Of a stretch of DNA of 64,000 nucleotides, positions 297-59,493 are shown piece after piece. Positions within the stretch are counted from its first letter, which is position 1. Every line of letters starts with the position of its first letter. Both the position numbers and the translations under genes were made by a program. The stretch is from assembly GCA_030390025.1 (NCBI GenBank), contig CM059429.1, positions 138,446,001 to 138,510,000 of the forward strand, read 5' to 3'. The stretch comes from Squalus acanthias (Eukaryota). The notes beneath the pieces are model-generated. The model saw only the letters and a program-made list of their open reading frames with translations, was not told the origin of the DNA and did not search any database.

Positions 297-596
297 CTCC
301 GCTGTCACCGAAACTTTTCCTCACTGACCCTTTCAGTGTAACGTGTTGAACCTGACAGGTGACGGCGGTTCCCGGGTCCCAGTGAGTGTCTGTAATCCGC
401 AGCCGGGAGCTCAGGTAGAAGGTGCCGTCACTGTTTCCTGTCAGGGAGTCCGGTTCTATTTGATAGGAGACATCTCCCGCTACAATCCAAGAAATGTTCA
501 GACCTCTCGGGAAAAATCCCGCCGCCACACAAGTCAGAGACTGAATCCCAACAACTTCATTCTCGGGATTCGCAGAGAGATAGACTTCAGGTTTCG
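297..596 (-). CDS. Ig-superfamily gene A, exon 3: C1-set constant domain (gene continues beyond left edge)
   Basis: Acceptor ttag ends at 597, donor G|gtaagt at 297, 300 nt, phase 1-1. Translation AKPEVYLSANPENEVVGIQSLTCVAAGFFPRGLNISW...NSDGTFYLSSRL...W..G..VTCQVQHVTL has C1-set motifs (CxxxGFxP, W, NxDGTF, CxVxH). Confidence 0.9.
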
Positions 597-934
597 CTAA
601 ATAAACATTAAAATATCACAAGTTATATCAAAGCAAATATATAGAGAGCAACTGTAGATTAAACTCGTGCATATATGATACTAAATGGGAAATTATATGA
701 TTTGATTAGATTGTCTCAATATACAAATCACAAGATACCTATAATAAAATATAACACATGTACCCGAATGAAATACGAGCCAGAATAATATCCCGTGACT
801 TTACAATAAGTTTCGTTCGCTTTGTTTTTCTTTGGACCAATAGCAAGAAAATTAAATGAAGTGACTATGCTTATTTCACAAAATCAGTGTCGCTATTTGC
901 AATTCGCTTGTTATAGAAATAATATCCCGCTGTT

Positions 935-1078
935 AGAATAGAATCGGACAGCACAGAAGGAGGCCATCGGCCCATCGTGCCTGTGCCGGCTCTTTGAAAG
1001 GGCTGTCCAATTAGTCCCGCTCCCCTGTTCTTTCCTCATGGCATTGCAATGATTTTCCTTTTCAAGTATTTATCCAGT
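935..1078 (-). mobile_element. CR1 LINE extreme 3' end fragment
   Basis: gcacagaaggaggccatcggcccatcgtg terminus shared with minus-strand CR1 ends at 17302 and 27080. Confidence 0.65.
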
Positions 1079-1309
1079 ATTGGTATCAGCATTCTATAAT
1101 TTTGTCTTTTGGATGTTTTTCTTCAAACCAAGTGTTTTTTAAACTATATGAAAGTGTCTGCTGTTTAATGGATATTGTGGAATTAAAGTTAAACGCTGGT
1201 GTATTCAGTCCAGTCCCCAGTGCACAGAGTATGTCAGTCCCAGATTAGATATGTGTGTGGAGCGAGTTCTGATTCCTTTGCCCCAATACATTGAACTATT
1301 TCAGTTTTG

Positions 1310-1519
1310 ATGCGGAGATGCCGGTGTTGAACTGAGGTGGACAAAAGTGAGAAGTCGCACAACACCAGGTTATAGTCCAACAGTTTTATTTGAAATCACA
1401 AGCTTTCGGAGCGCTGCTCCTTCGTCACTTCATCTGACAAAGGAGCAGCCGTTCCGAAAGCTTGTGATTTCAAATAAAACTGTTGGACTATAACCTGGTG
1501 TTGTGCGACTTCTCACTTT
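1310..1519. mobile_element. Miniature Penelope-like insertion (inverted pseudo-LTR pair plus tail) with 13-bp target-site duplication
   Basis: Inverted arms about 1343-1427 and 1435-1520; same termini as the GIY-YIG element at 37255-39925; TATTTCAGTTTTG directly repeated at 1297-1309 and 1520-1532. Confidence 0.85.
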
Positions 1520-1546
1520 TATTTCAGTTTTGGTTCATCTAATTAC

Positions 1547-1882
1547 CTTGGATGTTCAGTTCTGTTCCCTCTCCTGTAAATTCTTTCCAGGGCCGAGGCT
1601 CCTCTCTAAGAACCAGGCAGTGGTAAGTGTCGGAATCGTCCACAATCACCTCCCGGATGATAAGCGAGCCCTCAGATACAGACACACGAGAGCTTTTATT
1701 GAGGACATTCCTAGTTTTGTTGCCTCTGATGCCAGGATTGTCTCTTGTCCTAAACCAATAATATCTCACCGAATCCAGCCGCTCCTCTCCGGGTAACAGG
1801 GTGCAATTGATCCGAGCTGTCTGTCCTCTCAGGAGGGACAGAGCTAAAGGAGACTGGATCACTTTCAGACCGACAGCAGGCC
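1547..1882 (-). CDS. Ig-superfamily gene A, exon 2: V-set domain with germline-joined J-like strand
   Basis: Acceptor tcccag, donor CAAG|gtaatt, 336 nt, phase 1-1. GPAVGLKVIQSPLALSLLRGQTARINC...YYW...LIIREVIVDDSDTYHC...FTGEGTELNIQ has B-strand Cys, C-strand Trp, DxxxYxC and GxGT. Confidence 0.92.
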
Positions 1883-1977
1883 CTGGGACATAAAATTACA
1901 ACAAGTAGGAACATGACATTCAAATTATCTGAGTCCAACTAGAATAACTGTCAACTGGGGTAAGAGTGAATGCTTAC

Positions 1978-2026
1978 CTAAGACAAGGAGCCAGAGTTTG
2001 AGAACAATGTTTCTAAATGGAGCCAT
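1978..2026 (-). CDS. Ig-superfamily gene A, exon 1: signal peptide
   Basis: ATG at 2026, MAPFRNIVLKLWLLVL(G), donor TAG|gtaagc, phase 1 joins the V exon in frame across a 95-nt intron. Confidence 0.88.
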
Positions 2027-2039
2027 ATTGCTGAAGAAA

Positions 2040-2150
2040 GCACCGAGTCACCGGTTGGTTAGACCTGTTGGCTGGTCTAAAGAATATTAAGATCGCTGGT
2101 AAATTATTGCGGTTGTAGCGCACAGTGCGTCACATCACACCGGCTGTTGG
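2040..2150 (-). promoter_or_regulatory. Putative proximal promoter of gene A (RUNX site, CRE/AP-1-like site)
   Basis: TGCGGT at 2108-2113 and TGCGTCA at 2126-2132, about 80-105 bp upstream of the ATG. Motif matches only. Confidence 0.35.
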
Positions 2151-14230: not shown

Positions 14231-14972
14231 TGGGAGTTTTTTTTGTTGGAAACTTTCTTGGACTTGGAGAGCTCAGTCCAGACTAATAGTGTTCGGTGTT
14301 ACATAACTATAGCACAGTCTGACTTTATATCATGAGGATTTAAACAATGTTCAGTGGGGAAAACCCGAAAGAAAAAAAATTACGGAAAGTTGTCGGGATT
14401 GGCGGTTCTGGTTGAGTGAACAACGGGGAATATGTTAGGAATGAAGACCGGGGAAAGTTTGATTTATATTTAGTAATAGGAGAAATCGGGTAGTGCCGTT
14501 TGATGCTATACGGTGACCTACATTGTAATGTCGAGCAGTGCTTGTGAAATTAAAGATTAATTACAAAGTGATAAGAAACTTAACACTGTTTGATCATTTG
14601 GCAATAACTAACTGCACCAGAATTAAAAATAAAAGTGAATTAATATTCCGTGGCTGGACACATTTCTTCAATACTTAATAATCTTCATTAGAAATTTGGT
14701 TTGGATGTTATAGTAGAAAATGGGTCGGGAGTTTTAAAGTATGAAAGAAGTATTTTAGTGCCCGTAGAGCAATAGGCAGCATTGGAGTAAGACCAGTGAA
14801 GAGCTGAGGTATTTTAGGATTCAGATTGAAGATCTTATTGAACTATTGATATCAACCAGTTAGGATGCTTGAGGAATTGTTTTGGATGTTGAGATATTTT
14901 TAATGTACTTGGGATTTAGGAAATTTAATTATATTTATTTATTTTTGCATATTTTTCTGTAAATTTCCAAAA

Positions 14973-15448
14973 ATGTCAGAGAGTCAGGAAAAGTTGGAAA
15001 ATAACTCTAAGACTTCTGCACCGTCCTCGACAAGTTCCGAATCTCCAAGGAGCTGCAGGACAAAGTGTTCGGTTTGTAAAAACTTTTACACCGATCCGAA
15101 GATCTTGCCTTGTCTGCATACGTTCTGCCTCGGCTGTACGAGAGGCTTGGAGCAGTTCTCTGTTCCTCGGACTCCGAGGGAGGTTGAGTCAGGATCTGGA
15201 GGATCATTAGATTGCTCCGAGCCTGGGGCCTGTATCCTGTGTCCAGTCTGTGATTGTGAGGTGCCTGTGCCCCCTGCTGGAGTGCGAGGGCTGACCAGTA
15301 ACCATCTGATTCTGAATGAGGTTTTACTGGAGAGCCTGAAGAGACCCGACTACAGGTTAGTCTGTGATCTTTGTAACGATGGAGATGCTGAAAGAAGGTG
15401 TCACATCTGCTCAGCAAATCTCTGTGACTTCTGCTCCAAAGCACACAG
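14973..15448 (+). CDS. TRIM45: TRIM45 coding exon 1 (RING finger, B-box 1)
   Basis: CSVC..PCLHTFCLGC..CPVC RING; CDLC..CHIC..LCDFC B-box; donor AG|gtaaga, phase 2. Confidence 0.93.
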
Positions 15449-15776
15449 GTAAGACTCTGTTTGGACTGGTCATTGGGATTTTATTGGCTCCCCTTGTATG
15501 CATCTTCAAAGCTTTGCTTATTATGTGCAATGATTCTAGTGAACTATACCATTGTAGGAAAGATATCTCATTTATTACAATAGATGTCACTTTTTATTAT
15601 AAAATTCTCTGTCCTGATAATGTAATTAAACAAGGGTAAGATTATTAAGTAAGCTACACTTTTCAAACTGATATGAGGCATGGCCACTTTACAATTAAAT
15701 TAATCTTGTTAAAACTGAAAATAACCATGGTTGGTGGTCATAAATTTTTAAGCTGTAAAACTAACCCTTCCGGCAG

Positions 15777-16513
15777 GAGGCAGAGGATGACCGCTTCTCA
15801 CGACACAGTGGCCCTGAAGGACCTACAAGGTGGAAATGAGAGAATTGTTAAGCCCATCATGTGCTCTGTTCATCCTGCAGAGGAACTGAGGCTGTTTTGT
15901 GAGACGTGTGATCGTCTGGTCTGCAGGGATTGTTGTATGGTGGATCATCGTGACCATAACTGTGACTTTATTGCTAGTGTCATTAACAAACATGGCAGTT
16001 TCATCAGGGAGCTTCTGAAGCAAACACAGCCACACGTTGGTGCATTGCAGGAGACTTTGCAAAAGATTGGCAATACTAGGCAGCTAGTACAAGAGCGGCT
16101 GAGAGTGATAACTGAAGAAATTAATAGTTTTACAGAGGATTATATCCGGGCTTTAGAGAAACATCGGAACAGACTTTTGAAAGAGCTGGAAGAGCTGAGA
16201 GTCCAGAAGGAGAATTCCCTGTATCTGCAGCAGATCCAGTTGGAACAGATCCTGGCAGATATGAAGACTGGAGTGGATTTCACGGAGCACTTGCTGACCG
16301 GTGGCTCTCACGTGGAAATCCTACTAACCAAATGTGTGGTAGTCAACCGGTTGAAACAGCTGAATAAGATTAATTACAGCACTCACCCTGGAGAGGATGA
16401 TGGGATACGGTTCCAGCCGCAGGAGAGAGCAGGACAGTGCGATGGGTTTGAGGTGTTCGGAATCATTGTCACAAAGGCAGTTGATCCCACCAAGTGTGTT
16501 CTTCAGGGTGAAG
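15777..16513 (+). CDS. TRIM45: TRIM45 coding exon 2 (B-box 2, coiled coil, start of filamin repeat)
   Basis: ctaac branch point and cag acceptor; CSVHPAEELRLFCETCDRLVCRDC..DHRDH; VDPTKCVLQGE; donor AAG|gtaagc. Confidence 0.93.
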
Positions 16514-17301
16514 GTAAGCGAGAAAGACAAACTTAACTTTTAAGTGTTGAATTTCTTTAAAGTTTTTGAATGACTGGTGCATCTCCCATGGATTTGGTTG
16601 TGCTGTGAGGGTTGGAGGCCTCGGTGCAAGTGGCAGAGTGGGGTTGCGGCAGAGTGGAAACGGATTGTCAAGTATGAGGTGAGGGTCGGCAATTAGGAGG
16701 TTTAGCAAATGAGCAGTGGGGGAGCCTATGATAGAGAACAGCGGGCAATGCTGGTGGTCACAGGGTGGTAACATGCTGAAGGTATTAAGAAGGTAAGTTA
16801 TGACCACCTCTGTTTTCCACGTTTGGTTAGTTGTACACTATCCTGATGGAAGGAAAAAGGAGTATCATGTTTTTCACAGTAGAAACAGCGAATCACTGGA
16901 TTCAGTCAGAAAATCTGGACAGGAGCCAGCATTTGACCAATCAGAAAGCACATGCCTGAGGCTGCAGGCACAAAAATTGTCTTTTGATAGATAAATATGT
17001 CGGATCTGAGGGCCTGGGTTGAAATCTTGTATGATGGCCACTGTCATTTCACTTTACTGTTTATGGAGGATAGTGCATATTTTTATAGTTGACTTTATGT
17101 AAAGTCATGAGACAATAGGAGGCAGACTGAGCGAAAAAGACACCCAGTGTATGCACAGTCAAAGGGGTAGGCAGGTGGAAAGGGAAACATGGAAAAACTG
17201 ACAAAGTGGAGCAGGCTCCATTAGCACAAGTAAACAAAAAAAGTAAAATACTGCAAATAAAAACAGAAAATTCTAGCAACAATCAGCAGGCCAGGCAGCA
17301 T

Positions 17302-18045
17302 AGGAATCATAGAAATTTGCAGCACAGAAGGAGGCCATTCGGCCCATCGTGTCCGCGCCGGCCGACAAAGAGCTGTCCACCCTAATCCCACCTGCCAGCT
17401 CTTGGTCCGTAGCCTTGTAGGCCACGGCACCTCAAGTGCACATCCAAGTTCTTTTTGAATGTGGTGAGAGTTTCTGCCTCCACCACCCTTTCAGGCAGTG
17501 AGTTCCAGAACCCCCACCACCCTCTGGGTGAAAACATTTCCCCTCAAATCCCCTCTAAACCTCCTACCATTTACTTTAAATCTATCCCCCCTGGTTGTTG
17601 ACCTCTCTGCTAAGGGAAATAGATCCTTCCTATCCACTCTATCTAGGCCCCTCATAATTTTATACACCACAATTAGGTCTCCCCTCAGCCTCTCTTCCAA
17701 AGAAAACAACCCCACCTATCCAATCTTGCCTCATAGCTAAAATTCTCCAGTCCAGGCAACATTCTCGTAAATCTCCTCTGCACCCTCTCTAGCACAATCA
17801 CACCCTTCCTGTAATGTGGTGACCAGAACTGTACGCAGTACTCTAGCTGTGGCCTAACTAGTGTTTTATACAGTTGAAGCATAACCTCCCTGCTCTTATA
17901 TTCTATGCCTCGGCTAATAAAGGCAAGTATCGCGTATGCCGCCTTATCTACCTGTCCTGCTACCTTCAGGGATCTATGGACATGCACTCCAAGGTCCCTC
18001 TGTTCCTCTGCACTTCTCAGTGTCCGACCATTTATTGTGTATTCC
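17302..18045 (-). mobile_element. CR1 LINE 3' fragment
   Basis: ORFs 17685-17987 and 17491-17715 (LVRPQLEYCVQFWSP, RLRGDLI). Confidence 0.9.
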
Positions 18046-18316
18046 CAGGTGTTTTTGAAAGGTTTGATATGGTAAATAAAGAAAGACTTTTTTCCTTTAG
18101 CTGGGGTGTCAGTAACAAGGAGGTCAACAATTTACTATTGTCATTTGAGGAAAGAGGTTGGGATAAATTTAAAGGGTTGATAGAGAATTGAATGCTTTGC
18201 CACAGACAGTAGTTGAGGCAGAGACCATTGAATAATTTAAGGGAAAGGTGGATAATATTTGAAACAAAGGGAAATACAGAGATATGAGAAGATGGAATTA
18301 GGTTTGGATTGTTCGA

Positions 18317-18480
18317 CTGCGGATGCTGGAAATCTGAAATGAAAACAGAAAATGCTGGAAACACTCAGCAGGTCAGGCAGCATCTGTGGAGAGAAGAAGG
18401 TAGGGTTCATGTTTCAGGTCGATGACCTATCGTCCGAGCCAGGTTCCGCTGAGCGTTTCCAGCATTTTCTGTTTTTATTC
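18317..18480. mobile_element. Short inverted-repeat element, probable pseudo-LTR remnant of a second Penelope-like family
   Basis: aaaacagaaaatgctggaaacactcagc ... gctgagcgtttccagcattttctgtttt inverted arms; related half copies at about 13880-13955 and 17240-17300. Confidence 0.55.
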
Positions 18481-18559
18481 CATTGGTACAGCAGCCTGGT
18501 AGAAGAAAAAAAGAAGGTTGACACCAAGGTGTTGATCATTCTTTGTGTGTAAATAAACT

Positions 18560-19130
18560 TCCCCTGATCTCCGTCTTAAATATTCCCTTTGCCAGTTTGA
18601 ACCTGTGTCCCCTTGCCCTACTCACATTTTAAAGTAATATTCTGGGTTTACCTTTTCTGTTCCATTAACTATCTTGTATACCTCTGCAAGATGACCTCTC
18701 GGACACATCCTTCCCAGCTTGAAAAGCCAAGGTTTCTCCAGTCATTCTTCATAATTCACACCCTGGCTCTTCACTTTCTGTAAGCTTCATGACTTTCTCT
18801 GCACTGCTTGCATGCTTATTTTGTAACTAAAACTGGACAAAGTACTTGAGGTGCGGTCTGACCAGAGCTTGCGGTATAGCTTCAGCATGCCATCCTCTGA
18901 CTTGCACTGTACTGACTTAGCAACATAGTTCAGCAGTTTATTTAGCTTGTTGATTGTTCCAGAATGACTGGACATGTTGAGTCGGCTACCCGCCCCCCCC
19001 CCCCCCCCCCCAGATTGTTCAACACCATTCAGAGAGTAGATGAATTACCCATGTTTTTTCTACAATGAACAGTACCTAACATTTACCCAAAGCAAGTTTC
19101 ATCTAAGACTGTTTGCCCATTTTATCGAGC
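18560..19130 (-). mobile_element. Old degraded CR1 fragment containing a poly-C tract (about 18993-19011)
   Basis: Residual LKLYRKL / VRPHLKY-like translation. Confidence 0.55.
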
Positions 19131-19297
19131 CCATTTTTGTAGAGTGCCTCCAATGTCTCTTTTCTATTGTTCAGCTCCATGTGACTGCCCACATGGTTCC
19201 ATTCTTTTGTGATCATAGTCAGAGTTTCTCCACCAATAGGTTCTCTTCCTAACCCCTCCGTCATCTCTGGAGTTCATCAAGAATCTTTCCTTAGTCC

Positions 19298-21715
19298 AAC
19301 AACAACAACTTGTATTTATATAGTGCCTTTAACATAGCAAAATGTCCCAAGGTGCTTCACAGGAGTATTATAAGACAAAAAAATTGACACCAAGCCACAT
19401 AAGAAATTAGGGCAGGTGACCAAAAGCTTGGTCAAAGAGGTAGGTTTTAAGGAGCATCTTAAAGGAGGAAAGAGAGGTGGAGAGGTTTAGGGAGAGAGTT
19501 CCAGTGCTTAGGGCCTAGGCAGCTGAAGGCATGGTCATCGATGATTGAGCGATTATAATCAGGGATGCTCAAGAGGGCAGAATTAGAGGAGTGCAGATAT
19601 CTCTGGGTGGGGGAGGTTGTGGGGCTGAAGGAGATTACAGAGATAGGGAGGGGCGAGGCCATGGAGGTGATTTGAAAACCAGGATGAGAATTTTGAAATC
19701 AAAACATTGCTTAACCGGGAGCCAATGTAGGTCAGCGAGCACAGGGGTGATGGGTGAACAGGACTTGATGCAAGTTAGGACACGGGCAGCCGAGTTTTAG
19801 ATGACCTCAAGTTTACGTAGGGTAGAATGTGGGAGGCGAGCCAGGAGTGCGTTGGAATAGTCAAATCTAGAGGTAACAAAGGCATGGATGAGGGTTTCAG
19901 CAGCAGATGAGCTGAGGCAAGGGCAGAGACGGGCAATGTTACGGAGGTGGAAATAGGCGGTCTTAGTTATGCCGCGGATATGTGGTCGGAAGCTCATTTC
20001 AGGGTCAAATATGACACCAAGGTTGTGAACAGTCTGATTCAGCCTCAGACAGATGTTAGGGAGAGGGATGGAGTCAGTGGCTAGGGAACGGAGTTTGTGG
20101 TGGGGCATGAAGACAATGGCTTCGGTCTTCCCAATATTTAATTGGAGAAAATTTCTGCTCATTCAGTACTGGATGGCGGACAAGCAGTGTGTCAATTTAG
20201 AGACTGTGGAGGGGCCTAGAGAAGTGGTGGTGAGGTAGAGCTGGGTGTCGTCAGCATACATGTGGAAACTGACGCTGTGTTTTTGGATGATGCCACAAAT
20301 GGGCAGCATATAAATGAGAAATAGGAGGGGGCCAAGGATAGATCCTTGGGGGACCCCAGAGGTAACGATGTGGGAATGGGAAGAAAAGCCATTGCAGGTG
20401 ATTTTCTGGCTACGATTAGATAGATAAGATTGGAACCAGGCGAGTGCAGTCCCACCCAGCTGGACCACGGTGGAGAGGCGTTGAAGGAGGATGGAGTGTC
20501 AACCATGTCAAAGGCTGCAGACAGGTCGAGAAGGACGAGGAGGGATAGTTTACCTTTATCACAGTCACAAAGGATGTCATTTGTGACTTTGATGAGAGCT
20601 GTTTCGGTACAGTGGCAGGGGCAGAAATTGGATTGGAGGGATTCAAACATGGGTTTCCAGGAAAGATGGGCACGGATTTGGGAGGCGACAACACATTCAA
20701 GGACTTTGGAAATGGGGCGGTAGTTTGCAAGGACGGAGGGGGTCAAGGGTTAGTTTTTTGAGGAGAGGGGTAATGACGGCAGATTTGAAGGAGAGGGAGA
20801 CAGTACCTGAGGAGAGTGAACTGTTTACAATATCAGCTAATATGGGATCCAGAAAAAGAAGTTGGTGGTCAGCAGTTTAGTGGGAATAGGGTCGAGGGAG
20901 CAGGAAGTGGGTCTCATGGACAAGATGAATATGGAGAAGTCAAGAGGGGAGATCGGAGAGAAACTGGAGAAAGATGCTTGATGAGTTCATGGCTAGGGCA
21001 GGGGGGAACCTTGGAGGAAGTTTGGCCTGGTGGGCTAGGAGAAGGAAGGGAAGTGGCAGAGGCAGCTGATCAGATGGTCTCAATCTTAGAGACAAAGAAG
21101 TCCATGAGCTCCTCGCACTTGTTGGAGGTGAGTGTGGAGGAGACAGTGGAGAGAGGTTTAAGAAGATGGTTAGCAGTAGAAAATAGTAACCGGGGGTTAT
21201 CTTTGCATTCCAGAATGATCCTGGAATAGTGATCAGTTTTGGCAGACGAGAGCAGGACCTGATAATGCTTTATGTGTTCCAGCCAGATCTGGCAGTGAAT
21301 GGCTAAACCAGTTGTCCACTATATCCGTTCAAGTCTGCGTCCCTTGGACTTGAGCGAGCGAAGATGTGGGCCGTACCAGGGGGAATGGCCATGGTGAGAG
21401 TGAGTAATGGCTTTAATAGGAACTAGGGCATCAAAGGTGGTGGTGAGAGTGTGGTTGAGCAGATTGGTAGCTGCAGAAATGTCATGGTGAATGGAGGGCC
21501 AAAGGCTGGATATTTGGGATTTTGTAAGTGCAGTTGTAAGAAAGTTGGGGGAAGAGTTTTTTCCAGGGGCGGACACAGAAGGAAGTAGAGTTGGGGAGGG
21601 GAGGGGAAGGGAAGGGGGATGTGGGTGGAGAGCGATCCAAGGAAGTGGTCAGAGATGGCCTTAGCTGCAATTGACACGATGGGAGTAGCGAGGCCACGAG
21701 AGATGGCAAGGTCCT
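19298..21715 (-). mobile_element. L2 LINE, 5'-truncated and frameshifted
   Basis: NYRPIS, LLDLSAAFD, GVPQGSILGPLLF, YADDTQLY, LQLNIGKTE, AFVTSRFDY; (GTT)n tail at 19298. Confidence 0.92.
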
Positions 21716-21779
21716 CTTCCTTATCTACATGTTGCTATACAGGAAGTCAGCTTTCACATGTACACTAATAATACTCAAC

Positions 21780-22250
21780 TGTACTTCTCAATCGCCTCAC
21801 TTGACCTTTGACTGCCTCTATGTTGTCTGCTTGCTTGTCTGACATCCAGTCCTGCTTCCCCCAGTTTAACATTGGAAAGACTGGAGTCTTTGTCTTTGGT
21901 TGTCATCTTTTGCCCTTGCCAAAAATGTCCATTTGGCATTGATTCCATACCCCTCCCTGGCCAGTGTCTTGGATTAATGCCTCCATACTCCACTACTCTC
22001 ATACTCTCCTTGATGGCATCGCATCCTCCAGTCAGCATAGCTCCAATTTTTCCAAAATTCTGTTTCACATATGCTGTCCGCACTAAGTCCTGCTCACCCA
22101 TAACACCTATCCTCGGTGACGTACATCGATTTCCCACTATCTTTAAATTTAAAATCTATATCCATGTCTTTAAATCCTTCCATGGCCTTGAGCCACTATA
22201 TCACTGTAATCCCCTCTCCTCCATATCCGCTCCCCTCTCCTATCTAAGTA
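21780..22250 (+). mobile_element. Degraded L2 fragment
   Basis: Weak similarity, in opposite orientation, to the adjacent L2 (tttaacattggaaagactgga, tttaaatccttccatggcctt). Confidence 0.55.
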
Positions 22251-23410
22251 TATCATCCTGTAAAGTTCGAATGTCACTTCCCCAAAAATAACTTCACCAA
22301 AAATAACTTAATTGACTGTTTTCAGTGTATTGCCCAAGTAAGTGTGTTTAGTTTGTGTGCAGAATTAAAGGTGGGGCTTACTCTGAATTAATTCATGCAC
22401 AGCTAGTAAATTATTAGCTCAATGCACATACTGATTTTCTTTTTTATATTAAAATCAACAGGAGATTCACATCAAGAATTTGTATGGCACATGGTTTTTT
22501 TAGCTGTAAACTTGCTTGCCTGAATTTCACCCATGGTATCAAGTGGGGCAGGAAGCCAGACATTTGCATGATCCAGTTAGAGATCGTAATGTAAGATAGT
22601 GCGATGTCTGGTTGTCATAGTTACTTTACAAGATTATTACTGTTTATATGTTGTGTGCATTCCATTCTATGTCTGTAAATTGCTTTACAAGTGTTAGATC
22701 TGAGTGGCTTGGGAAACATTTTAATTGCTGAATTGAAATCCTGCATGTTGTATGCTGCCGTTTTGTTTTTGCTGTTTACTGCGACTGAGTGGAAATTAGG
22801 TACTTGCCCACAAGAAAAGTGATGGGCCATTTGTCCTCTGTAATTCTGTTCATCTCATAGTGGCCAGTCAGTGGCATGGGTAGAATTCTAAGAACTATTT
22901 GTGCTGCCCTTTCAGTGGGATATTGGTACATTGGGGAGAGGGCAATTGGGGAAGGCAGTAAAGTAAATAATGCTGTTTGGTAATGTGAGCTGGCTGTGGG
23001 AAGGTGGGAATAGAGTTGCATTCTTTTGGTTCAAATCCCTGTCTTCTGAGGCCAAGTAGCCAACTGTAGTTAAGAGAGCTGATTGTAACCTGTTAATGCT
23101 CCAGTCCGCCACTGGACGACAAGCTGATTTGCTTCTGATTTTTATTGACCTGTGTACAGACACTACTCTACACAGCACCTCCCAGTGAGAGTGTAGCTGA
23201 GTTCAGGAGTGGGAATCAAAACTGCTTCTCACTGTGCATGGAGTCACACTGGTGCCTTTGTGATTTCTATGTGCTGTATATATTGAGGGGGGGAGTGGGG
23301 GCAGTGGGAATAAGTGGTTTTAAGTGTTGTATTTATTGTGTCAGGTATTCCTGTAAAGACACAAGTCTAGTGTATTCTGCATAATGCAGTTATAATTTGC
23401 TCATATTCAG

Positions 23411-23540
23411 GCCTTAATGTGGCTCGACAAGATGAACCAAGTGTATTCGTGCTGGTCTGTAATGACCAAACTGGGCAGCAGATGGGGAGAGGAGGCGAAT
23501 CCATTCGGGTTAACATCTTCAACAAGAAGAACAAAGAATG
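23411..23540 (+). CDS. TRIM45: TRIM45 coding exon 3 (filamin repeat)
   Basis: ttcag acceptor, TG|gtgggt donor, 130 nt; GLNVARQDEPSVFVLVCNDQTGQQMGRGGESIRVNIFNKKNKE; phases fit exons 2 and 4. Confidence 0.9.
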
Positions 23541-23949
23541 GTGGGTAATTTGTGCAAGAAGTAACTGGACCATAAATTAATGTCTGACAAAATGTAGCTG
23601 TCTTGCTTTGTAAAGTAGGTTAAGACTGGGTTATCGAGCAGCTAATTGCTATAGCCTCCACCCCTTGCACCTGATCTAAGTTAATCTGAATCTCTTATTC
23701 GAGATCTGATTTTCTTCAAAACTATACACTCTACAAGTTATTTAATTACTGTCCAGAAAGAGCATTTCATGTACAGACTCTATAAAATTCACCTTTCAAA
23801 TGATTCATCTATGGGGAGGGGGAATTTCTGCTGCTTTGAATCTACATGCATTCTATCTGATTTTCTAATAGAATTATAGACACTTCAGCATAGAAAGCTC
23901 CCATTTGACCCATCATTATATCAGTAAAATATTTGTGATTTGTATGTGT

Positions 23950-26622
23950 TTGATTAGTAAAATCCGAAACTAGGGTCTTAAATCTAAACAAAGCAAACTA
24001 TGTAGGTATGAGGGGCGAATTGGTTCTGGTGGATTGGGAAACTGCATTAAAAGGTATGATGGTAGACAAGCAATGGCTAGCATTTAAAGAATTAATTCAT
24101 AATTTACAACAAATATACATTCCTTTAAGGCACAAAAATCCCAGAGGAAAAGTGGTTCAACCGTGGCTAACAACAGAAGTTAAAGATAGTATTAGATCAA
24201 AGGAAGAGGCTTATAATGTTGCCACAAAGAGTCGTAAGCCTGAGGATTGGGAGGATTTTAGAATTCAGCAAAGGAGGACCAAGAAATTGATAAAGAAAGG
24301 GAAAATAGAATATGAGAGTAAACTAATGAGAGTAAACTAGCGAGAGACATAAAAACAAACTGTAACAGCTTCTATAGCTTTGTAAAATGGAAAAGATTAG
24401 CAAAAGTAAATGTTGGTCCCTTACATGCTGAGACAGGAGAAATTATAATGAGGAATAAGGAAATGGCAGAGAAATTAAACAAATACTTTGTATCTGTCTT
24501 CACGGAAGAAGATGCAAAAAAACTTCCTGGAAACATAGAAACATAGAATCTAGGAGCAGGAGTAGGCCATTCGGCCCGTCGAGCCTGCTCCACCATTCAA
24601 TACGATCATGGCTGATCATCCAAATCCAGTACCCTGTCCCTGCTTTAATCCCCACAGTACACATATCCCACCCTACCCCCGTAACCCCACGTATTTAATT
24701 CCCCCTAACATATCCCATCCTATCCCCATAACCCCACATATTTAATCCCCCCCTAACACTAAGGGTCAATTTATCATAGCCAAATCAACCTAACCCGCAC
24801 ATTTTTGGACTGTGGGAGGAAACCGGAGCACCCGGAGGAAACCCACGCAGACACGGGGAGAATGTGCAAACTCCACACAGACAGTCACCCGAGGTCAGAT
24901 TCGAACCTGGGTCTCTGGCGCTGTGAGGCACCAGTGCTAACCACTATGCCACCGTGCACTGTGGTGAACCAAGGCTCTAGCGAGAATGAGGAACTGAAAA
25001 AACAGTTTAGTAAAAAAATAGTACTGGAGAAATTAATGGCACTGAAAGCCAATAAATCCCCTGGACCTGATGGCCTACATCCCAGGGTTTTGCAAGAGGT
25101 GGCTATAGAGATAGTGGATGCATTGGATGTCATTTCCCAAAATTCCATAGATTCTAGAACGGTTCCTGCAGATTGGAAGGTAGCAAATGTAACCCCACTA
25201 TTTAAGAAAGGAGGGAGAGAGAAAATGGGGAACTACAGACCAGTTAGCCTGACATCAGTAGTAGGGAAAATGCTAGAATCTATTATTAAAGACGTGGTAA
25301 CAGGGCACTTAGAAAATAATAATAGGATTGGGCAGAGTCAACACGGATTTATGAAAGGGAAATCGTGTTTGATGAATCTGTTGGGAGTTTGTTGAGGTTG
25401 TAACTAGCAGAATAGATAAGGGGGAACCAGTGGATGTGGTGTATTTGGATTTTCAGAGGGCATTCGATAAGGTGCCACACAAGAGATTATTAAACAAAAT
25501 TAGGGCTCATGGGATTGGAGGTAATATACAAGCATGGATAGAGGATTGATTAACGGACAGAAAACAGAGAGTAGGAATAAACGGGTCATTTTCGGGTTGG
25601 CAGGCTGTAACTAGTGGGGTACCACAAGGATCAGTGTTTGGGCCTCAGCTATTCACAATCTACATCAATGATTTGGATGAGGGGACCAAATGTAATATAT
25701 CCAAATTTGCTGATGATGCAAAGCAGGGTGGGAATGTAAGTTGTGAGGAGGATGCAAGGAGGCTTCAAGGGGATATAGACAAGCTAAGTGAGTGGGCAAG
25801 AACATGGCAATTGGAATATAATTTGGAGAAATGTGAAGTTATCCACTTTGGTAGGAAAAATAGAAAAGCAGAGTATTTTTTAAATGGTGAGAGATTGGGA
25901 AATGTTGGTGTTCAGAGGGACCTGGGTGTCCTTGTACCCTGAAAATTAACATGCAAGTACAGCAAGCAATTAGGAAAGCAAATGGTATGTTGGCCTTTAT
26001 TACAAGAGGATTTGAGTATAAGAGTAAAGACGTCTTACTGCAATTCTATAGGGCCCTGGTGAGACCACACCTGGAGTATTATGTACAGTTTTGGTCTCCT
26101 TATCTAAGGAAGGATATACTTACCTTAGAGGGACTGCAACAAAGGTTCACCAGATTGGTTCCTGGGATGGGAGAATTGTCCGATGAGGAGAGATTGAGTA
26201 GACTAGGCCTATATTCTCTAGAGTTTAGAAGAATGAGAGGTGATCTCATTGAAACATACAAAATTCTTACAGGGCTTGACTGGGTAGATGCAGGGAGGAT
26301 GTTTCCCCTGGCTGGGGAGTCTAGAATCAGGGGTCACATCTCAGAATAAGGGGTCGGCCATTTAGGACTGAGATGATGAGAAATTTCTTCACTCAGAGGG
26401 TGGTGAATCTTTGGAATTCTTTACCCCAGAGGGCTGTGGAGGCTCAGTCGTTGAGTATATTCAAGACAGAGATAGATAGATTTTTGAATATTAAGGGAAT
26501 CAAGAGATATAGGGATAGTGCAGGAAAGTGGAGGTGAGGTGGATGATCAGCCATGATATTGAATGGCGGAGCAGGCTCGAGGGGCCAAATGGCCGACTCC
26601 TGCTCCTATTTCTTATGTTCTT
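23950..26622 (+). mobile_element. CR1 LINE, 5'-truncated, with nested SINE
   Basis: SPGPDGLHPRVL, NYRPVSLTS, KFADD, RPHLEY ORF fragments; tcttatgttctta tail. Confidence 0.92.
24534..24957 (-). mobile_element. HE1-like V-SINE nested in CR1
   Basis: tRNA-like head, V-domain core (ggagtttgcacattctccccgtgtctgcgtggg on minus strand), CR1-derived tail; highly similar to 58360-58799. Confidence 0.85.
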
Positions 26623-26699
26623 ATTGCTATCTGTTGCTGGTATGTGTTGGGATCAACAGTTAATCAACCTCCTTCCTTCAATGTCTTTTACGTCAGCCG

Positions 26700-26945
26700 T
26701 GGCTCATTTCGCAGAAGAGCAGGGGAGTTATCCCCGGTGTCCTGGCCAATATTTATCCCTTAATTAACATCACTTTAAAAAAAAACAGATTATCTGGTCA
26801 TTATCACATTTCTGTTTGTGGGAGCTTGCTGTGCACAAATTATCTGCTGCATTTTCTACATTACAACAGTGACTACACTTCAAAAGTACTTAATTGGCTG
26901 TAAGACACTTTGGGACGTCCTGAGGTTGTGAAAGGCGCTATCAAG
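26700..26945 (+). mobile_element. Deu-domain SINE 3' half with L2-like tail
   Basis: gtcctggccaatatttatccct...gtgggagcttgctgtgcacaaatt...tttgggacgtcctgaggttgtgaaaggcgcta; reverse copies at about 28680-28760 and 48160-48360. Confidence 0.65.
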
Positions 26946-27079
26946 TCTGTTTTTTTTAATGGTTCACAATGACATGCTTCGAGTAAACACGAGACACTTG
27001 GGTGTATACAGAGCAGACTTTATTCATATACAGCACAGGTGATCAGCCTAACTCTGTACCGAGAGTAGCTTTTCAGTTT

Positions 27080-28420
27080 AATAGAATCATAGAAGCTTAT
27101 AGCACAGAAGGAGGCCATTCGGCCCATCGTGTCTGTGCCGGCCGAAAAAGAGCTACTCAGCCTAATCCCACGTTCCAGTTCTTGGTCCGTAGATTTGTAG
27201 GTTATGGCACTTTAAGTGCATATCCAAGTACTTTTTAAATGCGATGAGGGTTTCTGCCTCTACCACCCTTTCAGGCAGTGAGTTCCAGAGCCCCACCACC
27301 CTCTGGGTGAAAAAAATTGTCCTCAACTCCCCTCTAATCCTTCTACCAATACTTTAAATCTATGCCTCCTGGTTATTGACCTTTCTGCTAAGGAAATAGG
27401 TCCTTCCCATCCACTCTATCTAGGCCCCTCATAATTTTATACACCTCAATTAAATCTCCCCTCGGCCTCCTCTGTTTCAATGAAAACAACCCCAGCCTAT
27501 CCAATCTTTCCTCATAGCTAAAGTTCTCCAGTCCTGGCAACATCCTTGTAAATCTCCTCTGTAGTCTCTCTAGTGCAATCATGTCGTTTCTGTAATGTGG
27601 TGACCAGATCTGCACACAGTACTTTAGTTGTGGCTTAACTAGTGTTTTATACAGTTTTAGCATAACCTCCCTGCTCTTATATTCTCTGCCTCAGCTAATA
27701 AAGGAAAGCATCCCGTATGCCTTCTTAACCACCTTATCTACCTGTCCTGTTACCTTCAGGGATCTGTGGACATGCACTACAAGGTCCCTCTGTTCCTCTA
27801 CACGTCTCCGTATCCTACCATTTATTGTGTATTCCCGCGCCTTGTTAGCCTTCCCCAAATGCATTACCTCACACTTGCCACTTTTCTGCCCACCTGACCA
27901 GTCCATCAATATCTTCCTGCAGTCTACAGCTTTCTTCCTCACTATCAACCACACAGCAATTTTTTGTATCATCTGCAAACTTCTTAATCATGCCCCCTAC
28001 ATTGAAGTCTAAATCATTGATCTATACCACGAAAAGCAAGGGACCTAGTACTGAGCCCTGTGGAATCCCACTGGAAATCGCCTTCCAGTCACAAAAACAC
28101 CCGTCGACTATTACCCTTTGCTTCCTGCCACTGAGCCAATTTTGGATCCAACTTGCCACTTTCCCTTGGATCCCATGGACTTTTACTTTTCTGATCAGTC
28201 TGCCATGTGGGACATTGTCAAAAGCTTTGCTAAAATCCATGTAGACTACATCAAGCGTGCTACCCTCATCGATCCTCCTTGTTGCCTCCTCAAAATTCAT
28301 TTAAGTTAGTCAGACTTGACCTCCCCTTAACAAATCCATGCTGACTTTCCTCGATTAATCCATGCCTTTCTTAATGACGATTAATATGGTTCCTCAGAAT
28401 TTTTTCCAATAATTTGCCCA
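27080..28420 (-). mobile_element. CR1 LINE 3' fragment
   Basis: DVVYMDFSKAFD, GIPQGSVLGPLLF, LVKPQLKYCVQ ORF fragments. Confidence 0.9.
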
Positions 28421-29901: not shown

Positions 29902-29980
29902 TGTATTGTTTGCGCATGTGCGTGTTAACTGAGTGAAAGTATTTACGATGAACATTTTGGTCTTCTGTTATTTCATGCAG

Positions 29981-30095
29981 CAGTCTCAAGGCAATGCTGC
30001 AGGACAATCATGATGGAACTTATCGTCTTACATACACTCCGCGGGTATCGGGCTCGTATGTAGCATGTGTCTGTGTGAGGGGACAGCATGTTCAG
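29981..30095 (+). CDS. TRIM45: TRIM45 coding exon 4 (filamin repeat)
   Basis: tgcag acceptor, CAG|gtgagt donor, 115 nt; SLKAMLQDNHDGTYRLTYTPRVSGSYVACVCVRGQHVQ (DNxDGTY..YTP filamin motif). Confidence 0.93.
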
Positions 30096-31684
30096 GTGAG
30101 TTAACAGGGGATGAAGATCAGTAAAATGATAACTCGAAAGGGTGTAAATTCTACTGGCGTATTGCATTAGATCACTTGCCTTCTGCCTTTGCGACCTGGG
30201 TTTGAATACATTCCTGATAGAATAGTTAAAAATATTTTCTCTAGGTCTTGAAATGAGATGTCTAGTTTCATCTGACCATCAAAGTAAGTATATGCCCTGA
30301 ATGCATGCATGTGATCATTGATTGTAAAATGTACGTTTCCCTTATACTCTTTGTTCACAAAGTGCATCAGGGACATTGAATCTGAAGCAGTGTTGTTTTG
30401 GGGTTGACCTTATCTGTAATTGTGCAATGAGAAAGGGTTAATTAATAATCATGTAGTAAAGGGGCCTTTAGGGAAGAGTGACCATAATATGATAGAATTT
30501 TATATTGAGTTTGAAAGTGATTTAGTTAAATCCGAAACTAGGGTCTGAAATCTGAACAAAGCAAACTACGTAGGTATGAGGGGCGAGTTGGCTACGGTAG
30601 ATTGGGAAACTACATTAAAAGGTATGATGGTAGACAAGCAATGGCTAGCATTTAAAGAATTAATACATAATTTACAACAAATATACATTCCTTTAAGGCA
30701 CAAAAGCCCCACAGGAAAAGTGGTCCAACCGTGGCTAACAAGAGAAGTTAAAGATAGTATTAGATCAAAGGAAGAGATTTATAATGTTGCCAAAAAGAGT
30801 AGTGAGCCTGAGGATTGGGAGGATTTTAGAATTCAGCAAAGGAGGACAAAGAAATTAATAAAGAAAGGGAAAACAGAGTATGAGAGTAAACTAGCGAGAG
30901 ATATAAAAACAGATTGTAAAAGCTTCTATAGGTATATAAAAAGGAAAAGATTAGCGAAAGTAAATGTGGGTCCTTTACAGACTGAAACAGGAGAAATTAT
31001 AATGGGGCATAAGGAAATGGCAGTGAAATTAAACAAATACTTTGTATCTGTCTTCACGGAAGAAGATGCAAAAAACTTCCTGGAAATAATGGTGAACCAA
31101 GGCTCTAGCGAGAATGAGGAACTGAAAGAAATTAGTATTAGTAAAAAAAATAGTACTGGAGAAATTAATGGCACTGAAAACCAATAAAGCCCCTGGACCT
31201 GATGGCCTACATCCCAGGGTTTTGAAAGAGGTGGCTATTGGTTGTCATTTTCCAAAATTCCTTAGATTCTAGAATGTTCCCCGTGGATTGGAAGGAAGCA
31301 AATGTAACCCCACTATTTAAGAAAGGAGGGAGAGCGAAAACGGGGAACTACAGACCAGTTAGCCTGACATCAGTAGTAGGGAAAATGCTGGAACCTATTA
31401 TTAAGGACATGGTAACAGGGCACTTAGAAAATAATAATAGGATTGGGCAGAGTCAACACGGATTTATGAAAGGGAAATCGTGTTTGATGAATCTGTTGGG
31501 GTTTTTTGAGGTTGTAACTAGCAGAATAGATAAGGGGGAACCAATGGATGTGGTGTATTTGGATTTTCAGAAGGCATTCGATAAGGTGCCACACAAGATT
31601 AGGGCTTATGGGATTGGGGGTAATATACTAGCATGAATTGAGGATTGGTTAACGGACAGAAAACAGAGAGTAGGAATAAACGGG

Positions 31685-51382: not shown

Positions 51383-51456
51383 ATACATTAAACCCTGAAG
51401 AATCCTGGGATACTTTAATCCACAAAACTCTTATGTACATACAGCAGCCAGCCTGG

Positions 51457-56887: not shown

Positions 56888-57769
56888 AAAATGTGCGGGT
56901 GCTCTGATCCTGTGAGAAGCAAGCGCAGGTGGTTACAGGCAGATTAGAAAAAAATTGCTTCAAAAAGCATTTCCTAGCTGCAGAAATCTGTGATCAAAAT
57001 CTCTTGACTCTTCTGTCTTCTCACTGCCCCCTGTATCAGCTGATCCTGGCAACTGCTGTACCTCATCATTCTCAGTCTGAGTCACCAGGAGTGCACCAGC
57101 AGTGCAAACCCAGGAAACTCATGACTGCCTTGTCACTGGCTCTCACTCTGACATATGCAAATGAGGCCAGTAGGGACTTGGCAGGCGGATCGTGGGAAGG
57201 CTCAAAAGAAAACTCGGGGGAAGCGTTTTAAAGGCGCACAAGCGTCAGAAACCAATTACACCTGAATTTCCTCGCTAAAAAAAACCCCACACGGTTTATA
57301 CACCATTAATGTACTGAAAACAGAGGAAATTCATTCCCAATCTTTAGTTCTTCCCTTCCAAGAAATCATGTGTTGTCTCCCTTTTACTTTTGCCTTGTTC
57401 AAGTGCACTAGTATCTGTCTTTTCAGTTGTACTTATTGATGGAACTTTGGATTGGAACCTAACCTCAACCTCCCGAGGTAGTTTGACTGCACTTTCTCTT
57501 TTAAGGTTACCTTGCGCTTGCTTTACAGAGCGTGTCCCTTCAAGCACAATTTCTCAATTAAATAATAGTTCAGAACTGTCTTCAAGTTGTTGCTTCAGAA
57601 ATGTCCTCAAGTGGCATTTTCAGAAAATGACCCGGTATTGCCTTCTCAGTGGCCCTGAATATATGTTCTTATACTTTTGTTACAATAACAAAACTGAGGC
57701 AAGAGATCAAGTTGTAACCTTTGGGAAAAAATTGCTTTGCTTGTACTAAGATCAATCTCCCTGCAAAGA

Positions 57770-58165
57770 ACGACAGAACCATAGGGGTTTATTAGCGCAG
57801 AAGGAGGCCATTCGGTCCAGTGTCTGTGCTGCCTGTTTGCTCGAGCATTCCAAAACTAATCTCACTGCCCTTATAACTTGTATCTTCTTCTGCTTTAAAT
57901 ATTTATTCAATTTCCCCTTAAAAGATGCAATCACTCCCTGTGGCAAAGTATTCTATGCTCCAACAATCCACTGTATAAAGAAATTTCTCCTAATCTCTGT
58001 CCTGATTCTCTTAGTGGCTATTTTAAATTGATTACCCCTCGTCATTGACTCCCCAACTAGAGGAATTAGTCTTTCCCTATTCACTTTATTAAAATGTTAA
58101 TCACTTTAAAAACCTCTATTAAATCTTCTCATAGCCTTCACTGCTCCAGTGGAAATAGTCCCAGT
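57770..58165 (-). mobile_element. Degraded CR1 3' fragment
   Basis: gcagaaggaggccattcgg terminus; RNFFIQ-like translation on the minus strand. Confidence 0.65.
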
Positions 58166-58359
58166 ATCATTCTGTAGATCAAGTCAGACAGAGAGCTCCT
58201 TGCCAATAACTATCCTCCTGGAATTCTGTAAAGGATAAGAATGCCAATTTGTCAAAATAGATCAATGACTCGATCCTCCATTGTCAACAGATTTCTGGAT
58301 AGCTGGAAAGGTTCTTCCAGCTCTGAGAAAGTCAATTTTGCAATAGATAATCCAGGCAA

Positions 58360-58799
58360 GGGCGGCACGGTGGCATAGTGGTTAGCACTGGTGCCTCACA
58401 ACGCCAGGGACCCGGGTTCGAATCCGGCCTCGGGTGACTGTCTGTGTGGAGTTTGCACATTCTCCCCGTGTCTGCGTGGGTTTCCTCCGGGTGCTCCGGT
58501 TTCCTCCCACAGTCCAAAAATGTGCAGGTTAGGTTGATTTGGCTATGGTAAATTGACCCTTAGTGTTAGAGGGGGATTAAATATGTGGGGTTACGGGGAT
58601 AGGATGGGATATGTTAGGGGGAATTAAATACGTGGGGTTACGGGGATAGGGTGGGATATGTGTCGGTGCAGGCTCGATGGGGATTCTGTGTGGGAAAGCA
58701 GGGACAGGGTACTGGATTTGGATGATCAGCCATGATCGTATTGAATGGTGGAGCAGGCTCAACGGGCCGAATGGCCTACTCCTGCTCCTAGTTTCTATG
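58360..58799 (+). mobile_element. Full-length HE1-like V-SINE
   Basis: A box tggcatagtgg, B box ggttcgaatcc, V-domain core, internal about 43-bp tandem duplication, CR1 tail. Confidence 0.88.
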
Positions 58800-58880
58800 C
58801 AAGGAACTGGTTTCACAAAGAGCAACATACATTTCTGAGGCAACTTTAACAAAGGAAATGACTTTTCTAATTATGGAACA

Positions 58881-58890
58881 GGAACTGAAA
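58881..58890 (+). promoter_or_regulatory. ETS-IRF composite element (EICE) in the proximal promoter of gene B
   Basis: GGAACTGAAA exactly matches GGAANNGAAA, about 80 bp upstream of the ATG. Confidence 0.45.
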
Positions 58891-58968
58891 TTGCTGATTA
58901 GTTGCTGAGAGAGTTGCTTTGGTGCTGTCAGAAGGTCTATTCCTGCATATCAGTGTTACTGATAAAGC

Positions 58969-59002
58969 ATGATGATTGATACATTGCTCCTGTTTTCAGT
59001 CT
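58969..59002 (+). CDS. Ig-superfamily gene B, exon 1: signal peptide
   Basis: MMIDTLLLFSV, donor T|gtaagt, phase 1 joins the V exon in frame (..SVCAATG LELLQSP). Confidence 0.75.
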
Positions 59003-59139
59003 GTAAGTATATCGATTCTATATATAAGTAATGTACATATAATCACATTTTAATATTGTCATAGGTTTACTATAGCATGGCACTTACGTTAAAACATTTT
59101 GAATATTTTTAAAACATTAATGAGGCTGTATTATAATAG

Positions 59140-59493
59140 GTGCTGCCACTGGATTAGAACTGCTACAATCTCCGGTCTCGCTCAGGCTGCAGGAAGGCCA
59201 GTCTGCCCATTTCGACTGCATTCTACAATATGAAGACAAGATAGTAAATGGCAGCTTTTATTGGCAATATACTAAAGTGAACTTTGGTGAAACACAAGTG
59301 AGAAATATCAGTATCGATCCAGGAGATGATCGTTTCAATGTTTTCAGTATCAACGCATCTGATTTCCGCAGCTCATTGATAATGAAAGACCTTCACATTA
59401 CTGACACGGGTGTGTATTATTGCAACATCATTATTCACGAACGTTCACTTTCAAGGACGACCATGGGCCCTGGGACTCGTCTAATTGTTCAAG
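59140..59493 (+). CDS. Ig-superfamily gene B, exon 2: V-set domain with germline-joined J-like strand (later exons not in window)
   Basis: tag acceptor, CAAG|gtaagg donor, 354 nt, phase 1-1; LELLQSPVSLRLQEGQSAHFDC..FYWQY..DRF..SLIMKDLHITDTGVYYC..TMGPGTRLIVQ. Confidence 0.92.

Follow-up and report, generated by a model that had tools for sequence, protein, structure and literature searches.

A probable non-rearranging paired-receptor system with unsplit VJ exons at the TTF2–TRIM45–VTCN1 locus of Squalus acanthias

SIRPs combine a V-C1-C1 ectodomain with a Lys/DAP12-type activating transmembrane (TM) segment and a synteny of their own, and PRARP has a VJ-C1-TM-ITIM/ITSM layout. UrIg is a secreted, MHC-linked VJ-C1x3 disulfide homodimer (PMC12227049), and the CD28 family is marked by a single V domain, a PPP/EIP motif in CDR3, and a tail with tyrosine motifs (PMC11599192). 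NKp30 (NCR3) is described as binding CD3-zeta through its TM charge and recognizing B7-H6 (PMC12272517), and patchy exon-wise identity in paired receptors is termed “merohomogenization” (PMC3210942).

Here, we analysed a window of 64,000 nucleotides from S. acanthias together with its flanks. The gene order TTF2–A1/A2–TRIM45–B–VTCN1–A3 probably represents a non-rearranging paired-receptor system, in which the best explanation, taken as a whole, is that A1 and A3 are paired receptors, A2 is an additional cassette, and B is a separate activating receptor. The A copies and their neighbours are as follows (prefixed coordinates lie outside the window):

1978..2026, minus strand: A2 leader exon, identical in A1, A2, and A3
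1547..1882, minus strand: A2 unsplit VJ exon, V-set (Pfam), 13-residue CDR3-like loop, T-G-x-G
297..596, minus strand: A2 C1 exon, C1-set (Pfam), donor intact
G000:C5:138437597-138442556, minus strand: A1 with Arg-bearing TM exon, left of the window
G000:C5:138575646-138587992, plus strand: A3, the inhibitory copy, right of the window
14961..30101, plus strand: TRIM45-type gene, exons seen, 3' end beyond the mapped part
~14961-15452, plus strand: RING exon of the TRIM45-type gene (domain match)
~15778-16515, plus strand: B-box/coiled-coil exon of the TRIM45-type gene (domain match)
29982-30101, plus strand: filamin exon of the TRIM45-type gene (domain match)
about G000:C5:138539903-138547295: VTCN1/B7-H4-like gene, after gene B

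The neighbours are TTF2-, TRIM45-, and VTCN1-like, and the RING, B-box, and filamin exons between A and B form a TRIM45 layout (Pfam), as stated in an earlier note on this DNA. The two divergent VJ genes of that note are both real, but the cluster contains four V exons, the other two belonging to near-identical A copies outside the window. Its observation of a joined VJ in one intact exon was confirmed for both genes, and a search around the V exons of A and B found no CAC[AT]GTG heptamer. Both genes have canonical phase-1 splice sites throughout, and each of the two V exons ends in CAAG/gtaa. When 234 kb were scanned with a C1 profile (six frames, stops read through), only three A-type C1 exons and the IgC of VTCN1, which had belonged to the profile's training set, were recovered.

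The three VJ-C1 cassettes are 96–97% identical, and each encodes a V-C1 ectodomain with one C1. In A1, a TM exon with an Arg is followed by no tail (activating type), whereas the tail of A3 carries ITIM/ITSM motifs (inhibitory type). A3 is inverted and lies about 128 kb away, beyond VTCN1/B7-H4. From this anatomy, A3 is predicted to be an inhibitory receptor that recruits SHP-type phosphatases, and A1 its activating twin, which would signal through an adaptor of the FcR-gamma/CD3-zeta type. No TM exon for A2 was found between the A2 C1 exon and copy A1; A2 is probably a tandem extra ectodomain cassette without a TM exon of its own, and may splice onto the A1 exons or be a remnant. This lack, together with a DNA identity of 98.4% between A1 and A2 over 2266 bp, would also fit A2 being an artefact of the assembly or a decayed fragment, in which case the finding would reduce to ordinary neighbours. 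We consider this unlikely. False haplotype duplication is disfavoured because it does not predict the private insertion in the first intron of A1, the 8 exonic base differences between A1 and A2, or the unduplicated spacer of ~3 kb between them. Moreover, the A2 frames are intact, A2 shares a longer upstream match with A3, and the A1/A3 pair and gene B hold whatever A2 is.

The earlier note had also raised a paired activating/inhibitory family, which is well supported, except that the pair consists of A1 and A3, neither of which lies in the window, and not of A and B. Among homologues in other species, which are database gene models known by sequence rather than genome position, both receptor types were present in Heterodontus (P0097/P0098) and Pristis (P0100/P0099), in each case as a cluster on a contig with a single listed length. 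The records of the homologues concerned are XP_067896079/XP_067896840 from Heterodontus and XP_051869794/XP_051870356 from Pristis, with XP_078088791 from Mustelus. The ectodomains of the pair are 96% identical within Squalus, 98% within Heterodontus, and 99% within Pristis, versus 65–78% between these species, and starred branches of the ectodomain tree unite the copies of each species. Across species, the TM exons retain their activating or inhibitory type, and the activating TM exon is homologous in Squalus, Heterodontus, Pristis, and Mobula (z 6.8–19.1 against 2000 shuffles). The first two tyrosine motifs are 28 residues apart in six of the seven inhibitory-type shark and ray tails scanned; in the Narcine tail, the pattern used detected the first motif only. 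Inhibitory forms only were found in Heptranchias, Hypanus, Narcine, and Chiloscyllium punctatum, and the activating form only in Mobula hypostoma. The second Hemiscyllium model lacks a clear TM, and the Hypanus model is the only one with a repeat, a near-identical duplicated C1. One contig of run X2, which we guess to be RNA and which derives from a related species, has V joined to C1 with nothing between them, and the Arg-TM exon is covered by another contig of equal depth (44.7), tied to the former by depth alone; runs X1–X4 were compared with the A1 stretch only.

At the DNA level, the identity of A2 and A3 is 98.0% across the 968 bp of promoter, leader, and V, 95.8% across the 403 bp of the C1 block, and 79–90% within the V-C1 intron; about 40 bp beyond the C1 donor, the match stops. 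Such patchiness is what has been termed “merohomogenization” (PMC3210942). Because identity is higher in the exons than in the intron, gene conversion is suggested, and the identity patterns and the TM exon comparison confine the homogenization to the ligand-binding exons. A similar pattern could also arise if the cassette had been duplicated afresh several times next to old TM exons. Repeated conversion between the inverted copies would keep the ligand-binding parts almost identical and the signalling exons distinct, and A1 and A3 should for this reason share a ligand. In NKG2A/C, KLRI, and PIR, ligand-binding exons are likewise homogenized within species and signalling exons conserved by type (PMC3210942). 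A1/A3 differ from these in that the ectodomain is an antigen-receptor-type VJ-C1, the pair has been kept in sharks and rays, and the inverted partners are separated by about 130 kb of DNA that includes TRIM45, gene B, and VTCN1.

SIRP-alpha/beta resemble A in having a joined-VJ V domain and C1, an inhibitory member with several tyrosine motifs, and an activating member that has a charged TM residue but no tail. The A family might therefore be the elasmobranch branch of the SIRPs, equivalent to SIRP-alpha/beta and shortened to V-C1. Of the three alignments listed for the A profile, that with SIRP-alpha (2wng) had the highest-scoring single V-C1 stretch (67.6 bits, versus 55.7 with UrIg2 and 44.5 with an Ig chain), the top ESM Atlas clusters were SIRP-alpha-named (0.96), and several NCBI names are SIRP-like. 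However, the V domain of A does not appear to be of the SIRP type: when it was searched alone, none of its 14 PDB matches was a SIRP, and a bichir SIRP-type V that matched SIRPs at 1e-14 matched neither A nor B in the Squalus genome. (The whole bichir protein gave no match in a stricter search, which is uninformative.) Furthermore, outside the Hypanus model A has one C1 instead of two, the activating TM of A1 carries Arg instead of Lys, the neighbours are TTF2, TRIM45, and VTCN1, and a clade of A and SIRP was disfavoured but not rejected (AU p=0.067). SIRP descent is thus improbable, and A is best read as an old paired-receptor family that resembles the SIRPs but is distinct from them.

Gene B is composed of the following parts:

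58969..59002, plus strand: leader exon, matching the N-termini of P0015 and P0016
59140..59493, plus strand: unsplit VJ exon, V-set (Pfam), M-G-x-G
59494..64000 and beyond the window, plus strand: second intron with LINE-like fragments and a tandem array, no C1 exon
G000:C5:138511509-138511538: stalk exon, 30 nt, inferred from splice signals
G000:C5:138512037-138512134: Arg-bearing TM exon with stop (TM of the Mustelus orthologue, z=17.8)

The product, of 171 aa, consists of a leader, a VJ domain, a short stalk, and an Arg-bearing TM followed by a stop. A phase-1 C1 exon had been predicted downstream, but the C1 profile found none in six frames over 234 kb, and the Mustelus orthologue (P0016), which has the same layout, likewise lacks C1. 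This layout of leader, VJ, stalk, and charged TM is that of NKp30/NCR3, as is the length (170 aa in nurse-shark NCR3). In contrast, B is 31% identical to it, is not part of the large cluster of NCR3-like genes on C26, and forms its own clade outside the starred NCR3 clade, and the TM exons of B and NKp30 are not significantly alike (z=0.5); a placement of B as sister of the NCR3 clade was not rejected (AU p=0.46). The best PDB matches of B were TCR V-alpha chains (weak, E 3.5e-6 and above), and a longer-protein search with B gave no match. A structure model of its V domain, from a 3-sequence alignment, had a mean pLDDT of 37 and was discarded. The CD28 family was rejected for both genes, as neither loop contains PPP/EIP, A has a C1, and B has no tail. 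NCBIfam gave no match for any of five proteins. In the best reading, B is a divergent activating relative; it would be a separate, long-diverged receptor of NKp30-like layout that escaped homogenization.

PRARP1/2 and UrIg/UrIg2 share with A the unsplit VJ exon followed by C1; A differs from UrIg in being a membrane V-C1 protein with no spare Cys and no FGxG. The VJ-C1-TM-ITIM/ITSM layout of A agrees with that of PRARP, so that A and B could be the shark orthologues of PRARP1/PRARP2, a known non-rearranging VJ(-C1) pair. However, turtle P0091, a VJ-TM-ITSM-type protein with canonical FGxG that we take to be PRARP-like, best matched another family on C3553/C24 (E 3.8e-13), with B at 3.1e-7 and A unlisted. 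It also grouped with that family in two trees (99/94 and 98/93), and its members retain Phe118 and have a Cys close to the candidate TM. Although joined-VJ genes in the literature include PRARP (PMC11599192, PMC10751288), orthology of A and B with this pair is very unlikely.

The earlier note had proposed that A and B may pair as an invariant TCR/Ig-like heterodimer. In both genes the VJ exon is unsplit and encodes GxG, the loops are of equal length, the two genes are each other's best non-copy V match in the genome (profile-profile probability 97%), B has the V-alpha matches described above, and both B and A1 have a TM Arg. The leader/VJ layout and CAAG/gtaa donor are shared as the note had said, and the genes differ widely elsewhere (31% identity between A and B). 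Its loop of 11 residues ending in an aromatic residue or Met was incorrect, there being 13 residues between Cys104 and position 118 in both, and the latter being non-aromatic (Thr in A, Met in B); its QSP.SL.L..G start is present but generic, as TCR V-alpha chains also have it. The old duplication proposed there is plausible from the reciprocal best matches, but a grouping of A and B was missing from the best V tree (AU p=0.31), and A+B+frog received 35/81 support. For the first tree, which also gave the NCR3 value, 4 of 28 rows were dropped (three J-less C29, long-branch C438); for the second, with the A+B+frog and A+SIRP groupings, three further rows were dropped and eight added. These trees leave A, B, NKp30, SIRP, and the C5:145 Mb pair, where a rapid pattern search gave no convincing ITIM exon, mutually unresolved. 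By sequence, A and B may plausibly share an old ancestor, and a frog homologue, A0A8C5P6H9, is possible.

Pairing itself is poorly supported. Because B has no C1, here or in Mustelus, the two ectodomains are unequal by one domain in height. At the positions that we take to form the V-V interface (numbered after IMGT), Gln44 is missing in all 14 aligned A and B rows and Phe118 is found in 2/11 A and 0/3 B rows, whereas Gln44 and Phe/Trp118 are visible in the TCR matches of B; 10/11 A rows have His or Arg at position 103. No spare extracellular (interchain) Cys was found in the deduced A1, A2, A3, and B chains, and the partner to which concerted evolution ties A is its own twin rather than B. 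The resemblance between the Arg-TM exons of A1 and B is not significant (z=1.8, p=0.06) and is therefore not counted as proof of kinship. A heterodimer of A and B is thus extremely unlikely.

B and A1/A3 might stem from NKp30's unsplit VJ(-C1) stock and, by analogy with NKp30 and B7-H6, recognize B7-H4 (VTCN1), whose gene lies between them, as a relic receptor–ligand cassette that survives in frogs. Linkage and layout alone suggest this, and we regard it as a long shot; a pathogen-driven decoy pair fits the strong divergence between species at least as well. To our knowledge, B7-H4 is an orphan in mammals. If true, the proposal would give B7-H4 a natural receptor, and it would reveal an opposing-signal system whose antigen-receptor-type scaffold predates the split between sharks and bony vertebrates.

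We found no earlier description of the A/B family in the literature covered, to which the PRARP papers did not belong, and these receptors are apparently an undescribed family of familiar immune design. Unsplit VJ-C1 genes have been sought as relatives of the gene that the RAG transposon entered (PMC12227049), and the locus contributes an elasmobranch-wide family of this kind, which, by its layout, would work as an innate on/off pair and not as a two-chain antigen receptor. The exon-restricted homogenization of paired receptors is now extended to sharks and rays. Furthermore, shark NK/myeloid biology gains concrete candidate receptors, for which the adjacency of B7-H4 makes a ligand easy to test.

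Genes A and B lie in the window C5:138446001-138510000 (contig CM059429.1) of the 3.7-Gb genome, and a RING/B-box/filamin gene with the TRIM45 layout, identified from its Pfam domains, was found between them, confirming the earlier note's claim that they bracket TRIM45. In gene A (minus strand), a leader and a single unsplit VJ exon precede a C1 exon; gene B (plus strand) comprises a leader and a single unsplit VJ exon. V-set and C1-set domains are supported by Pfam. Every junction is canonical and phase 1, with CAAG|gtaa at the end of both V exons, in agreement with the common leader/VJ layout and donor proposed previously. The CDR3-like loops are indeed similar in length, but they contain 13 residues in both genes rather than the 11 suggested, and the next residue is Thr (A) or Met (B), not aromatic. 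No RSS heptamer occurred near either V exon; therefore, "germline-joined" is better read as non-rearranging, the exons having never been split or having been joined anciently.

Features of the locus (positions outside the window are genome position minus 138446000)
-8303..-8403, minus strand: A1 TM exon with Arg and stop, single-copy, after C1
-5101..-5400, minus strand: A1 C1 exon
-3812..-4147, minus strand: A1 V exon
-3444, minus strand: A1 leader (A1 lies left of the window)
65509-65538 (30 nt), plus strand: gene B stalk exon, downstream of the V exon
66037-66134, plus strand: gene B TM exon with Arg, then stop, downstream of the stalk exon
about 93903-101295, right side: VTCN1/B7-H4-like gene (best solved-structure match 4gos, E 4.8e-18)
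129646-141992, plus strand, opposite to A1 and A2: A3, beyond VTCN1

A TTF2-like gene (GRF zinc finger/SNF2) occupies the left side of the locus. Among the mobile elements, a 319-aa DDE_Tnp_4 (Harbinger-type) transposase-like open frame (window 9724-10683, minus strand) lies between A2 and TRIM45, and two tandem near-identical retroelement-like frames of 320-350 aa each lie at 37570-39557. The second intron of gene B holds a tandem array (61813-62640) of an approximately 20-bp G+C-rich unit flanked by two LINE-like fragments in opposite orientations. To the right of A3 are an LTR retroelement (plus strand) with long gag/pol-like open frames (L024:1722-5634; extended window about 155700-159600) and, from about 165500, a long simple-repeat tract.

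Gene B lacks the phase-1 C1 exon predicted for it: a C1 profile scan reading through stops found none in its introns, and stalk and Arg-TM exons occur instead, giving a deduced product of 171 aa. A Mustelus model (XP_078088791.1) has the same length and layout, while a Chiloscyllium model resembles gene B in leader and V only. The layout is that of NKp30 (170 aa in nurse shark); however, identity to gene B is only 31%, and gene B falls outside the large NKp30/NCR3-like cluster at C26:13.47-17.14 Mb. Nurse-shark NCR3 has 67 matches, most of which fall in this cluster, some with stops.

The earlier note proposed A and B as two chains of a TCR/Ig-like dimer. Such a dimer is unlikely on the deduced sequences because B is one domain shorter than A; moreover, Gln44 is absent in 14/14 and Phe118 in 12/14 A and B rows, 10/11 A rows have His or Arg at position 103, and no extracellular Cys is left over in the deduced chains. 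The note's other option, a paired activating/inhibitory family, is well supported, with different partners. Gene A (A2) is one of three genome copies: A1 ends in an Arg-TM and stop; in A3 the TM is neutral and the tail contains LHYVSV, TEYAVL, LHYSTV, and a fourth tyrosine close to its end. The genes are real and the partners were misassigned. A2 precedes A1, the stretch between them lacks a TM exon, and because A2's junctions are all phase 1, it could splice in frame into A1 exons. In X2, a sequencing run from a related species, a single contig joins V straight to C1, and the Arg-TM exon sites have the same contig depth (44.7); we read these as a spliced activating transcript, the TM piece being linked by depth alone and X2 taken as RNA by guess. 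A1 alone carries, in its first intron (-3493..-3811), an insertion of 224 bp that contains an inverted repeat and is flanked by a direct duplication; this insertion is younger than the separation of A1 from A2 or than the most recent conversion.

Of 204 candidates, 11 qualified as A homologues at E<=0.001, all of them elasmobranch, and cluster members added others; sharks supplied the closest named ones (84% to Heptranchias). One inhibitory and one Arg-TM form occur in both Heterodontus and Pristis. Ectodomain identity between forms was 96% in this shark, 98% in Heterodontus, and 99% in Pristis, versus 65-78% between these three species, and copies clustered by species in a 14-row tree. The activating TM exon was homologous in four species (z 6.8-19.1), and the inhibitory tails were alignable across sharks and rays. 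Therefore, both signaling ends are older than the shark-ray split, with the ectodomains re-equalized afterwards. A2 and A3 DNA matched at 98.0% over promoter-leader-V, 95.8% over the C1 block, and 79-90% in the intron between, the match ending just past C1; PMC3210942 attributes such a pattern in mammalian paired receptors to gene conversion. Against this concerted-evolution reading, only the inhibitory form was recovered from four taxa. The Hypanus inhibitory model has two near-identical C1 domains (V-C1-C1, like SIRP), which may reflect either recent duplication of the exon or an artefact of modelling. SIRP is the described family closest to A in design, but the V domain of A seems to differ from the SIRP type.

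Copies aside, A and B are reciprocal best matches in the genome, but the trees gave no resolved sister grouping of the two (AU p=0.31). A Leptobrachium frog protein (A0A8C5P6H9; V-V-C1-TM-tyrosine motifs) hints at one old A/B family reaching amphibians: its alignment to the inhibitory form of Heptranchias spans 339 columns at 27%, its TM plus tail matched A3 at z=9.5, and the V of B was its sole shark-genome match at E<=1e-6. However, against the A3 cytoplasmic part it scored z=4.8, within the 2.8-5.5 of other ITIM-type tails, its C1 fitted the C5:145 Mb genes equally well, and A+B+frog clade support was 35/81. Those C5 genes form a second inverted VJ-C1 pair 6.7 Mb away (145185249-145188118, minus; 145375606-145380955, plus), with a CD28H-like EIPPP loop and GxG, near-identical C1 frames, and candidate TMs, one with Arg and one neutral. 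Since PMC11599192 describes CD28H-like genes as single-V, this C1 may be unreported. An unplaced single-exon VJ domain (C438:918485-918817, plus) has a 13-residue loop and a long branch.

A turtle VJ-ITSM-type protein, presumably PRARP-like, points to a shark family on C24/C3553 rather than to A/B, with 22 matches on C3553, C24, and C185 ranked above gene B. This expanded VJ-type family (many copies on C3553; C24:48.88 Mb) is closest to turtle XP_037738506; in the genes sampled, the FGxG is canonical, there is a C1 exon or a candidate TM exon containing Cys and Arg, and two near-identical copies include an ITIM-like exon. Its members seem better candidates than A/B for a PRARP-like or TCR-like dimer.

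In the literature searched, we found no description of the TTF2-TRIM45-VTCN1 locus; "undescribed" is provisional, as Fu et al. 2019 on PRARP, Ohta et al. 2019, and the paper on the shark NCR3 family may already include these genes. TRIM45, VTCN1, and PRARP were absent from the searched supplementary text files of PMC10751288, PMC11599192, and PMC12227049.

On the basis of established receptor biology, the TM Arg of the activating forms would pair with an FcR-gamma/CD3-zeta-type adaptor. NKp30 binds CD3-zeta through TM charge (PMC12272517). Adaptor pairing through TM charge is a general rule for such receptors, and ITIM/ITSM motifs recruit SHP phosphatases, as those of A3 probably do. A1 and A3 may share one ligand and set a threshold; alternatively, A1 may counter a pathogen exploiting A3. 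Gene B would be an independent activating receptor. Anatomy, conservation, and identity pattern are observed directly, and the adaptor, phosphatase, and ligand roles are predictions. The system is best read as a conserved family of paired receptors built on a VJ-C1 scaffold, together with a relative that has the NKp30 layout.
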